Notes: generated by a model not told the origin, from the sequence alone. Positions 11,450-13,733 are shown, counted from the stretch's first letter. The stretch is 64,000 bases of DNA from a virus (IMGVR_UViG_3300029904_000353:1107-65106); one strand, 5' to 3'. A program made the numbers and translations.

Positions 11450-11660
11450 ACGCTACATCGTCCAGCTCGATGACGACGCGCTGACCGCCTTCCTGTTCCA
11501 CTGGGTGAACCACGGCAAGCCTTGTCCCCTGCTTTTCCAGAAGCCACGGACAGACGGACAGACCGCCGTCCGACTGCAATACACCGATGGTGACACGGAG
11601 AGCATCCTGTTCCTGCGCGATGCCATCCAAGCCACCAGATGCAGGCTGTATGAACGATAA
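11439..11660 (+). CDS. Small hypothetical protein
   Basis: 73 aa, overlaps both neighbours in operon fashion. Confidence 0.65.
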   Translation: MEAKRYIVQLDDDALTAFLFHWVNHGKPCPLLFQKPRTDGQTAVRLQYTDGDTESILFLRDAIQATRCRLYER

Positions 11661-12660
11661 CCAAGACAAAGACCGTATGACCCACGCATCACTCTTCAGC
11701 GGCATAGGCGGAGCCGAGATAGCCGCTACGTGGATGGGATGGAGAAATCTATTCCATTGCGAGATAAACCCTTTCGGACGCAAAGTCCTCGAATACTGGT
11801 ATCCAAATTCAACGAGTTATGAAGACATCACAAAAACAGATTTTTCAGAATGGCGGGGACGCGTCGACGTGCTCACCGCAGGCTTCCCATGCCAGCCCTT
11901 CAGCGTGGCCGGACAGCGAAAGGGAGCGGACGATGACCGCTACCTCTGGCCGCAGGTTGTCCGCGCTGTGCGTGAAATCCGACCCGCTTGGGTCGTTGGC
12001 GAGAACGTTGCTGGAATCCTCACGATGGTTCAGCCCGGCGAGGAGGTTGAAGTGGGAAGCGGCTCCGCTCTTTTCGACGAGAATCACCTATACCGAACGG
12101 AGCAGCAGTACGTCCTCGAAACCGTCTGCCAAGACCTCGAGCGTGAAGGATATTCCGTCCAGCCGTTTGTTATTCCGGCTTGTGCCGTCGGAGCGCCCCA
12201 AAGGAGAGACCGCGTGTGGATTATTGCCCACCGTGCAGACGCAGGGGCTGAAACGATGCAATGCGGAAGGGAAAACGGAGTTCATGCCGCTGGATTTGCT
12301 GCCTACACCCAATGCTGCGGAAGGAGAGAAATACACAACGAGGTACAACTCGGACAGCCAAATGGGCAAAGGGCTTACGGCAATGGCTGTGAACGGCTTG
12401 CTGCCTACACCACAAACGAGAGATTACAAAGGAGAATGTCACATGACACAATCTTGCCTGCCGAATACTTTTCAGGCTTCCCAACTCAACCCCCTGTTTG
12501 TAACGGAAATGATGGGCTTTCCCTTGGACTGGTTGGTATCACCTTTCCAAAGTGGCGGGCAGAATCCATCAAAGCCTTAGGCAACGCATGGGTGCCGCAA
12601 GTGGCATACGAGATATTCAGAGCCATACAACAGATCGAAGATGAAGAAACAACCAGTTAG
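11650..12660 (+). CDS. DNA (cytosine-5) methyltransferase, alpha polypeptide
   Basis: Motif I SLFSGIGG, IV GFPCQPFS, VI ENVAGI, VIII PQRRDRVW, X KALGNAWVPQVA; motif IX not found in this frame. Confidence 0.92.
   Translation: MNDNQDKDRMTHASLFSGIGGAEIAATWMGWRNLFHCEINPFGRKVLEYWYPNSTSYEDITKTDFSEWRGRVDVLTAGFPCQPFSVAGQRKGADDDRYLWPQVVRAVREIRPAWVVGENVAGILTMVQPGEEVEVGSGSALFDENHLYRTEQQYVLETVCQDLEREGYSVQPFVIPACAVGAPQRRDRVWIIAHRADAGAETMQCGRENGVHAAGFAAYTQCCGRREIHNEVQLGQPNGQRAYGNGCERLAAYTTNERLQRRMSHDTILPAEYFSGFPTQPPVCNGNDGLSLGLVGITFPKWRAESIKALGNAWVPQVAYEIFRAIQQIEDEETTS
11819..12580 (+). CDS. Overprinted alternative-frame ORF, probable MTase beta polypeptide
   Basis: 253-aa same-strand frame nested in MTase; three LLPT[PV] repeats and motif-IX-like QLNPLFVTEMMGFPLDW. 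Confidence 0.7.
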   Translation: MKTSQKQIFQNGGDASTCSPQASHASPSAWPDSERERTMTATSGRRLSALCVKSDPLGSLARTLLESSRWFSPARRLKWEAAPLFSTRITYTERSSSTSSKPSAKTSSVKDIPSSRLLFRLVPSERPKGETACGLLPTVQTQGLKRCNAEGKTEFMPLDLLPTPNAAEGEKYTTRYNSDSQMGKGLTAMAVNGLLPTPQTRDYKGECHMTQSCLPNTFQASQLNPLFVTEMMGFPLDWLVSPFQSGGQNPSKP

Positions 12661-12817
12661 ACCCGCCCGTGACACCACCCTCCCCGTCCGCTGCCGCGAC
12701 TGTCGCAACGCATCGGAGTTCATCGAGAACTCCTGCTACTGCAAGGCAACGGGGAGGAGGGTCTGTTCTTGCATGAGGTACGGGAGGGTGTGCAAGTACT
12801 TTGAATCAAGAAAATAG
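12641..12817 (+). CDS. 58-aa Cys-rich small protein
   Basis: Hand translation with CRDC, CYC, CSC and C residues; possible metal binder. Confidence 0.5.
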   Translation: MKKQPVRPARDTTLPVRCRDCRNASEFIENSCYCKATGRRVCSCMRYGRVCKYFESRK

Positions 12818-12827
12818 CAAATCAATA

Positions 12828-13733
12828 ATGACAGCATCCGAAATAAACCTCACGCTAAGCGAAGTCCTCTCCCGCGTCCGTCCCGGGTTGCAGAATAAGA
12901 TTCTCTACTCCATCGACCTCATACGAAAGGCCGAGAAGATGGCATTGCGCCTTGACCCCGTGAACGGCTTCTACAACACATTTTCCGGAGGCAAGGACAG
13001 CCAGTGTCTATACCACCTCGTCAAGCTGGCAGGCGTGAAAGCCAAGACACACATGAACCTCACCAGCGTAGACCCGCCCGAAGTCATCCGCTTTGTCAAG
13101 TCGCAATACCCGGACGTGGAGCTGATAAAACCAAAGATGAGCATCTACGACATGGCGAAAAAGAAACACATCCTACCGACACGGAGGTTCCGCTGGTGCT
13201 GTGCTGAGTACAAAGAAATGTCCGGTGCGGGAAAGGTGACGCTCATCGGCGTGCGTAAACAGGAAAGCGCACGACGCGCCAAACGGGAGGAAATCAGCAC
13301 CAACATTAAAGGCAAGCGTGCAGAAGAGACTTTTGACCAATGGAGTGAACATGAAGAACAGATGGTTACTTGCGTAGGAGGAAAGGACAAGATACTTGTG
13401 TCGCCAATCATCTATTGGACGGAACGGGACGTGTGGGAGTTCCTTAACAGGAACGGCATTCCGCATTGTAAGTTGTATGATGAAGGTAGAACACGGATTG
13501 GTTGCTTATGCTGCCCCATGTCAAATTATAAGCAGAAGTTGAAAGACATATTAGAGTATCCACATGTGAAGCGTGGCTGGATACAAGCTATCCAATGGCT
13601 CATTGATAACGGATATGTGAACCGTAACTTTCAAGATGCCGAAACCGGATTCCGCTGGTGGATAAGCGAAAAGTCCTTCGACAAATTTCATGCAGACGAA
13701 GTATTACAACGAAAAATAAAATTTGAACCATGA
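12828..13733 (+). CDS. PAPS-reductase-family (PP-loop) protein
   Basis: PP-loop FSGGKDS, WCCAEYKE, IGVRKQESARR, PIIYWTERDVW, RIGCLCCPM. Confidence 0.88.
   Translation: MTASEINLTLSEVLSRVRPGLQNKILYSIDLIRKAEKMALRLDPVNGFYNTFSGGKDSQCLYHLVKLAGVKAKTHMNLTSVDPPEVIRFVKSQYPDVELIKPKMSIYDMAKKKHILPTRRFRWCCAEYKEMSGAGKVTLIGVRKQESARRAKREEISTNIKGKRAEETFDQWSEHEEQMVTCVGGKDKILVSPIIYWTERDVWEFLNRNGIPHCKLYDEGRTRIGCLCCPMSNYKQKLKDILEYPHVKRGWIQAIQWLIDNGYVNRNFQDAETGFRWWISEKSFDKFHADEVLQRKIKFEP

Follow-up and report, generated by a model that had tools for sequence, protein, structure and literature searches.

Two overlapping reading frames in one methyltransferase gene

The DNA analysed here, referred to below as the window, is the 64,000-nt sequence IMGVR_UViG_3300029904_000353:1107-65106 from a Bacteroides phage, with positions counted from its first letter. 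On its plus strand, on which all features of the window given below lie, a gene for a DNA (cytosine-5) methyltransferase (C5-methyltransferase) is found at 11650-12660, and within this gene two long open reading frames (ORFs) overlap. The main frame is here called alpha; the second frame, beta, is shifted by +1 and lies wholly within alpha. A first-pass annotation of the window had suggested that the two frames encode the two halves of a split enzyme, as in M.EcoHK31I of Escherichia coli.

The open stretch of the main frame spans 11587-12660. The likely start of alpha is the ATG at 11650, where there is an 11-nt overlap with the stop of the preceding gene, and the ATG at 11677 is the alternative. 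The 336-aa protein that begins at 11650 has the features of a catalytic subunit. Motif placement bore out the earlier claim that the main frame holds motifs I, IV, VI, VIII and X and lacks motif IX. Motif I (FSGIGG, 11695-11712), for binding of S-adenosylmethionine (AdoMet), motif IV (GFPCQPFS, 11881-11904) with the catalytic Cys and motif VI (ENV, 12001-12009) fall in invariant columns of the alignment. They are followed by motif VIII (QRRDRVWIIAH, 12199-12231, with the QRRDR core at 12199-12213) and motif X (GNAWVPQV, 12580-12603), and all five are invariant or near-invariant in 50 relatives. A scan of the alpha ORF gave no motif IX-like sequence. Alpha matched PF00145 (E 7.8e-40, 137.7 bits, cut-off 22), TIGR00675 (117.5 bits, cut-off 100.65) and phrog_363 (6.7e-74), and the best-scoring stretch for PF00145 and TIGR00675 was confined to the N-terminal part of the protein. 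The interval between motifs VIII and X is about 80 residues long and has no recognisable motif. Most of it is a linker (12232-12468, approximately aa 195-273) that is stop-free and unconstrained in its amino acids, and whose length in relatives varies from 57 to 232 codons. A C5-methyltransferase is otherwise recognised by a single chain in which motif VIII is followed by a variable region, motif IX and then motif X, and this order was not found in alpha.

The beta ORF (11819-12580, 253 aa) has its own ATG and three LLPT[PV] repeats, as the ORF listing confirmed, and its stop codon TAG (12578-12580) shares its last base with the first base of alpha motif X. The N-terminal domain of beta (11819-12220, aa 1-134) overprints alpha motifs III-VIII and includes the segments PLGSLARTLLESS (11984-12022) and RLLFRLVPSE (12164-12193). 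It is followed by a variable region (12221-12481) with the three modules LLPTV (12221-12235), LLPTP (12296-12310) and LLPTP (12398-12412), and by motif IX, QLNPLFVTEMMGFPLDW (12482-12532). The first-pass annotation was right that beta carries this motif; it lies near the end of the protein and not at the end itself, since 15 further residues come after it. The alignment of beta sequences showed the same order throughout, with a conserved N-domain of about 135 aa, then LLPTPxAxD modules whose number varies, and finally SQLNPLFVxEMMGFP, which hardly changes, and the indels were modular and located in the variable region.

In sequence and profile searches of beta, Pfam, NCBIfam and PDB gave nothing useful and the only match was to phrog_1008 (2.1e-18), labelled 'DNA methyltransferase'. 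In addition, hhalign matched the beta profile (probability 96.9%, E 1.3e-10) to the part of gp70 of Mycobacterium phage ShiLan, a single-chain enzyme, in which the variable region and motif IX are read in frame, and because of this match the C-terminal part of beta can be regarded as a genuine methyltransferase segment. Judged from its sequence, the variable region with the LLPT[PV] modules is likely the target-recognition part.

Conservation of the nested layout

Relatives were gathered from IMG/VR (80 loci) and from bacterial genomes (80 loci), the latter mostly of Bacteroides, Segatella/Prevotella, Parabacteroides, Alistipes, Porphyromonas and Sphingobacteriia and presumably representing prophages. 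The modules and motif IX were in the +1 frame, with motif X back in the main frame, in all 87 phage loci and in 78 of the 80 loci of Bacteroidota genomes, which makes 165 of 167 scorable loci in all, and this layout recurred down to approximately 50% amino-acid identity. Such a conservation of the nested arrangement is far beyond chance. The layout was also present in ORF40 of Lactobacillus phage Lc-Nu, in the Synechococcus phage (cyanophage) S-H1 and in a Porphyromonas phage, and it was the commonest one among the aquatic relatives of S-H1.

Annotations of the relatives list alpha or beta, never both, which agrees with the earlier expectation that standard annotation would miss the pair. Several genomes list alpha only, and beta is often predicted by gene callers as a stand-alone protein. 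In the Bacteroides phages BS-TP4 and BKO1-TP3 the locus is annotated as a single long methyltransferase coding sequence (CDS) with a junk-like middle, and in BS-TP4 it is the +1 frame of this CDS that the +1 frame of the window matched.

Selection on both reading frames

Among 82 unique relatives the main frame was stop-free in 72 and the +1 frame was open in 81, from around nt 100-130 of the gene to just beyond motif IX, as compared to 9-52 stops in the third frame. Frequent interruption of the beta frame in homologs, which the first-pass annotation had named, together with full activity of alpha alone, as an outcome that would speak against a split enzyme, was not seen. As a null model for stop codons, synonymous codons were resampled in 61 sequences. 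Over alpha codons 58-189 the +1 frame had a single stop in the 61 sequences taken together, where 4.06 were expected per sequence, and over the variable region the main frame likewise had one stop in the 61 sequences, with 5.4 expected per sequence. The depletion of stop codons predicted for both frames is thus clearly visible. The same was observed for an insert in the beta frame of one relative (L085:2060-2494, 435 nt, 145 aa), which had no alpha-frame stops against 9.3 expected and 12 stops in the third frame. This insert also gave weak Pfam matches to HNH_3 (4.3e-4) and AP2 (1.9e-3), a homing-endonuclease-like pair.

Next to the open frames, the diversity at each codon position was compared in 61 sequences with a mutual identity below 97%. 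Main-frame position 3 was the most variable over codons 10-194 and 300-334, and main-frame position 1, which equals beta position 3, was the most variable at codons ~196-295 (0.53-0.66). Since the most variable codon position switches, the selected frame switches as well, from main to +1 and back to main. The high variability of position 1 in the variable region further implies that the alpha reading is unconstrained there and that the beta reading is constrained. The variable region that the first-pass annotation called dual-coded is thus not doubly constrained, as the alpha reading is only kept free of stops.

Elsewhere in the overlap the picture was different. The diversity at four-fold sites of alpha was 0.41 inside the overlap and 0.64 outside (Mann-Whitney p 0.0017), and invariant four-fold sites at alpha codons 120, 172 and 177 fall in the two beta segments of the N-domain named above. 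At the 5' junction the last codons of motif VIII, alpha WIIAH, share their DNA with beta GLLPT. At the 3' junction (12478-12501) alpha FPTQPPVC and beta SQLNPLFV are encoded by the same DNA and both frames are constrained: in the beta codons for Thr, Ser and Pro the third position would accept any base but does not vary, and it coincides with F277, P278 and P282, which are themselves invariant in alpha. True double constraint is limited to the beta N-domain and the two junctions.

The beta start site

Stops in the +1 frame were frequent up to alpha codon 47, where they occurred in 54-80% of the sequences at some columns, and absent thereafter. The first ATG of the +1 frame, at alpha codon 57 (window 11819), was kept in 57 of 61 sequences. 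This ATG is formed from Tyr-Glu codons of alpha, and the overlapping Tyr codon was TAT in 58 cases and TAC in two, as compared to 197 TAT and 211 TAC elsewhere in the gene. When RNA structure was predicted in 40-nt windows over 57 loci, the weakest structure was found at the beta ATG (-1.1 to -2.7 kcal/mol), where the AT content also peaked (0.65-0.69). The alpha start was comparable (-3.2 kcal/mol), and the rest of the gene had values of -6 to -10 kcal/mol with an AT content of about 0.45. The unstructured AT-rich island at 11819 is the context expected for an initiation site in Bacteroidota.

Predicted complex of alpha and beta

A complex prediction in which both chains were given as alignments scored 0.85, against 0.32 for the best control. 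In the benchmark, 58 of 80 solved complexes and 2 of 110 mismatched pairs attained the pass mark; these counts hold only roughly, since the alignments were self-supplied, and a split pair of this kind may pass because the predictor knows solved structures of single-chain C5-methyltransferases. Three runs agreed in at least 71% of the contacts, with a pLDDT of the partner of at least 63. In the predicted structure motif IX of beta (220-245) contacts alpha 45-50 and 302-333, the latter being the motif X region, and beta 55-97 and 114-123 contact alpha 142-185 and 321-333. The beta segment RLLFRLVP (116-123) is placed against the alpha strand 169-185, and both segments are encoded by the same DNA. 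Binding between alpha and beta is supported by these models.

A probable two-chain enzyme and its alternatives

Taken together, we consider it very likely that two polypeptides from the overlapping frames assemble into one C5-methyltransferase. We infer the translation of beta, the two-chain assembly and the activity from the selection on both frames and from the complex prediction. One mRNA with two overlapping same-strand frames would give a two-subunit enzyme, in which alpha would provide the AdoMet-binding and catalytic core (motifs I-VIII) together with motif X, while its unconstrained linker would have no other role than to hold the core and motif X together in one polypeptide. Beta would be initiated independently at the ATG 11819 in the +1 frame and would contribute an alpha-docking N-domain, the variable region of LLPTP modules and motif IX. 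The two chains would then join into one enzyme, as do alpha and beta of M.EcoHK31I. The open frames, the switched selection, the conserved ATG and the complex prediction support the M.EcoHK31I-like arrangement that had been proposed from the window, with the modification that the part of beta goes beyond motif IX and comprises the whole conserved variable region and the N-domain as well.

Several observations weigh against this reading. Pfam, in which a search of the 253-aa frame for a methylase C-terminus had been proposed, did not recognise motif IX in beta. When beta was folded alone (AlphaFold2, 49 sequences) the mean pLDDT was 50.4, which is too poor for a fold search. The compared sequences share ancestry, and per-sequence statistics therefore overstate their independence. 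At the beta start the AT-rich island may partly reflect the alpha amino acids encoded there (YEDITKTDF), and no Shine-Dalgarno sequence is evident. The latter weighs little, because a Shine-Dalgarno sequence is seldom used in Bacteroidota. Further, in one lineage that is common in metagenomes (L005:3330-3332, and also L006 and L007) alpha is interrupted by a single TGA (ETIC*DL) and beta is intact. Finally, two near-identical copies of phage BS-TP4 (L093:1501-2745 and L094:1501-2745) have one-base deletions at different sites, which turn alpha and beta into 414-aa fusion ORFs.

A slim chance remains, in our estimate, that beta is translated and acts as something other than a methyltransferase subunit, for example as an independent DNA-binding or regulatory protein. 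The conserved N-domain belongs to no known family and gene callers often treat beta as a protein in its own right, both of which would suit such a role. It would, however, leave alpha incomplete, without motif IX or a conserved variable region, and would not account for a C-terminal part of beta that is homologous to the segment of a single-chain enzyme comprising its variable region and its motif IX, nor for a complex prediction that sets beta motif IX against alpha motif X. That such single-chain relatives exist (ShiLan gp70), and that the main, +1 and main frames when joined give the canonical order of motifs I-VIII, variable region, IX and X, could instead point to two programmed frameshifts, +1 near 12215-12235 and -1 near 12530-12550, which produce one canonical chain. 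We regard this as very improbable. Frameshifting needs neither an open main frame through the variable region nor a +1 frame that is open for ~400 nt upstream, and both are strongly maintained; it also leaves the conserved ATG, the codon bias at this ATG and its unstructured context unexplained. In addition, the readings at the junctions overlap (WIIAH with GLLPT and FPTQPPVC with SQLNPLFV), and because functional sequences overlap there, one frameshifted chain cannot hold both readings. Programmed frameshifting is recognised by an upstream frame that closes after the shift site and by a shift signal, either a slippery run or a stop codon. Here both frames stay open for hundreds of codons, and inspection of the junctions by eye gave no in-frame stop or obvious slippery run, in the absence of a dedicated slippery-site scan.

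If alpha alone were functional, the +1 frame could be an untranslated relic of an ancestral in-frame region, and the detection of alpha only by Pfam and the listing of alpha only in several genome annotations would then be expected. Over codons 196-295, however, it is the +1 frame rather than the main frame that is under purifying selection, and with the depletion of +1 stops and the conservation of the start codon this leaves the relic a barely credible explanation. The single-base-deletion copies in public assemblies (L093, L094) could likewise suggest that the gene is a pseudogene, or that faulty assembly introduced two frameshifts which compensate each other. This is refuted by conservation, as the frame arrangement returns, with both frames open, in 165 of 167 independent loci whose amino-acid identity goes down to ~50%, and we give it practically no credence. 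These copies were also considered as a third natural form of the enzyme, an alpha-beta fusion of ~414 aa. The idea was rejected, since near-copies of BS-TP4 with single-base deletions represent mutants or sequencing errors; any -1 indel where both frames are open yields a long ORF, which explains why fusion ORFs are common in protein databases.

Layouts in the wider family

To place the two-chain arrangement in its wider family we surveyed sequences found with ShiLan gp70 and S-H1 alpha as queries, in which the layouts were classed by motif patterns and are approximate. In the nested layout, where motif IX is read in the +1 frame and motif X belongs to the main one, no +1 stop fell between motifs IV and VIII in 71 of 72, 61 of 63, 38 of 39 and 18 of 18 unique loci. 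In the single-chain layout, where motifs IX and X are both in the main frame, the +1 ORF was retained in 8 of 17 loci. In the sequential layout the main frame closes after motif VIII and the +1 frame provides both motif IX and motif X; over motifs IV-VIII the +1 frame was open in none of seven such loci. A universal N-domain ORF in the wider family was therefore rejected. The nested layout was seen in phages of Bacteroidota, Bacillota and Cyanobacteria, and variant layouts in actinobacteriophages. In ShiLan (L090) a +1 ORF persists that encodes two modules and a beta-like N-domain, and in Rhodococcus phage ReT1v-1 (L092) the +1 frame encodes the modules, with motifs IX and X supplied by the main frame. 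In both phages the return to the main frame falls before motif IX. In a sequential-type locus (L195) the modules, motif IX and motif X are all in the +1 frame after the closure of the main frame.

As the layouts vary among relatives, it is conceivable that single-base indels could move modules, motif IX or motif X between translated frames without loss. If true, such a transfer would link the single-chain, the nested (M.EcoHK31I-like) and the sequential (M.AquI-like) layouts. Possibly, the nested layout is the dominant one in a very large family of phage C5-methyltransferases and the overlapping frames act as a device for reshuffling of specificity domains, an idea that we put forward tentatively and with slightly more doubt than confidence.

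For the lineage with the single TGA in alpha, stop-codon recoding was considered and rejected, as neighbouring genes end in TGA. A separate observation was made in a Bacteroides/Parabacteroides prophage clade (L122-L125, L128, L131, L132, L136, L147-L149, L152-L155 and L157), in which alpha has two to four in-frame stops, all of them TGA. An example is L124, from Bacteroides xylanisolvens XB1A (NC_021017.1, 3069525-3073379, reversed). Most of these TGA codons are at conserved Trp positions, corresponding to W28, W68 and W302 of alpha in the window, and a few are in the linker; 30 of the 31 cases of TGA at Trp across all loci fall in this clade. When a genome-wide reading of TGA as Trp was checked for in the L124 clade, no in-frame TGA was found in beta or in neighbouring ORFs. 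The alpha of this clade is still under purifying selection, with codon-position differences of, for example, 9/1/40, which suggests that UGA is read as Trp at some rate, by attenuation or by a suppressor tRNA, rather than gene decay.

Neighbouring genes

Just downstream of the methyltransferase gene lies a PAPS-reductase-like gene (PF01507, 8.9e-22) at 12801-13733. The same neighbourhood is found in BS-TP4, BKO1-TP3, L005, L093 and mycobacteriophage ShiLan (gp70 and gp72), and this cross-phylum synteny hints at a shared DNA-modification module. Between the two genes lies a 58-codon Cys-rich ORF (12641-12817, CxxC...CxC...CxC...C), which shares 20 nt with the end of alpha and terminates within the start of the PAPS-reductase-like gene. 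This ORF may encode a small zinc-binding protein.

Implications and comparison with known systems

If the two-chain reading is correct, the annotation is wrong for a large class of cytosine methyltransferases in phages and prophages, and predictions of specificity or activity from alpha alone would fail, because the recognition part is in an unannotated overlapping gene. The locus would also be a rare example, with strong statistical support, of two genes in a bacterial virus that overlap at length on the same strand, and how common such pairs are is a matter of debate. With ~760 nt the overlap would be among the longest well-supported ones on the same strand in phages. The family would offer natural and diverse split methyltransferases for engineering of the kind that has been tried with M.EcoHK31I (PMC2836561). 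The arrangement further bears on how gut Bacteroides phages mark their DNA against host restriction.

The closest known counterpart, M.EcoHK31I, was reportedly described by Lee, Kam and Shaw in 1995. It is a C5-methyltransferase of E. coli HK31 with an alpha and a beta chain and the recognition sequence YGGCCR (PMC2836561, PMC3404938), in which beta lies wholly within the alpha gene in another frame and both chains are required for activity (PMC2836561). Its alpha chain has motifs I-VIII, motif X and a predicted target-recognition domain (TRD), its beta chain has motif IX, and N-terminal deletions of beta weaken the association with alpha (PMC2836561, PMC3404938). The window shares with it the nested beta in another frame and the division of motifs, with I-VIII and X on alpha and IX on beta, and the N-terminal part of beta, which matters for association in M.EcoHK31I, is predicted to dock on alpha here. 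The two differ in the variable region, which is in beta in the window and has only a linker as its alpha counterpart, whereas in M.EcoHK31I the TRD was assigned to alpha; this TRD is itself merely predicted (PMC3404938), and the comparison is with the published description rather than with the sequence. They also differ in context, as the window gene is an orphan methyltransferase of a phage in Bacteroidota, outside any restriction-modification system. When the alpha core was compared by blastn with all complete genomes of E. coli, none was matched, and a tblastn search of plasmids with beta gave eight records, from Bacteroides and Bacillota and none from enteric bacteria.

M.AquI is another natural C5-methyltransferase of two polypeptides, split within the variable region; its small subunit holds motifs IX and X (PMC3404938). 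Its genes are sequential, in contrast to the window, where beta is fully nested and motif X stays on alpha, although a sequential layout does occur in some relatives such as L195. ShiLan gp70 is an example of the single-chain phage C5-methyltransferases with LLPTP/WPTP modules, with homologous catalytic motifs, LLPTP modules and motif IX and, as in the window, a PAPS-reductase-like gene close downstream; in gp70, however, the main frame encodes most of the modules together with motifs IX and X, and the enzyme is therefore one chain. In the literature searched, the nested layout was described for M.EcoHK31I alone and nothing was found on a phage family. An arrangement proven for one E. coli enzyme thus appears, from the sequence comparisons, to be conserved in hundreds of phage genes that are annotated as one.

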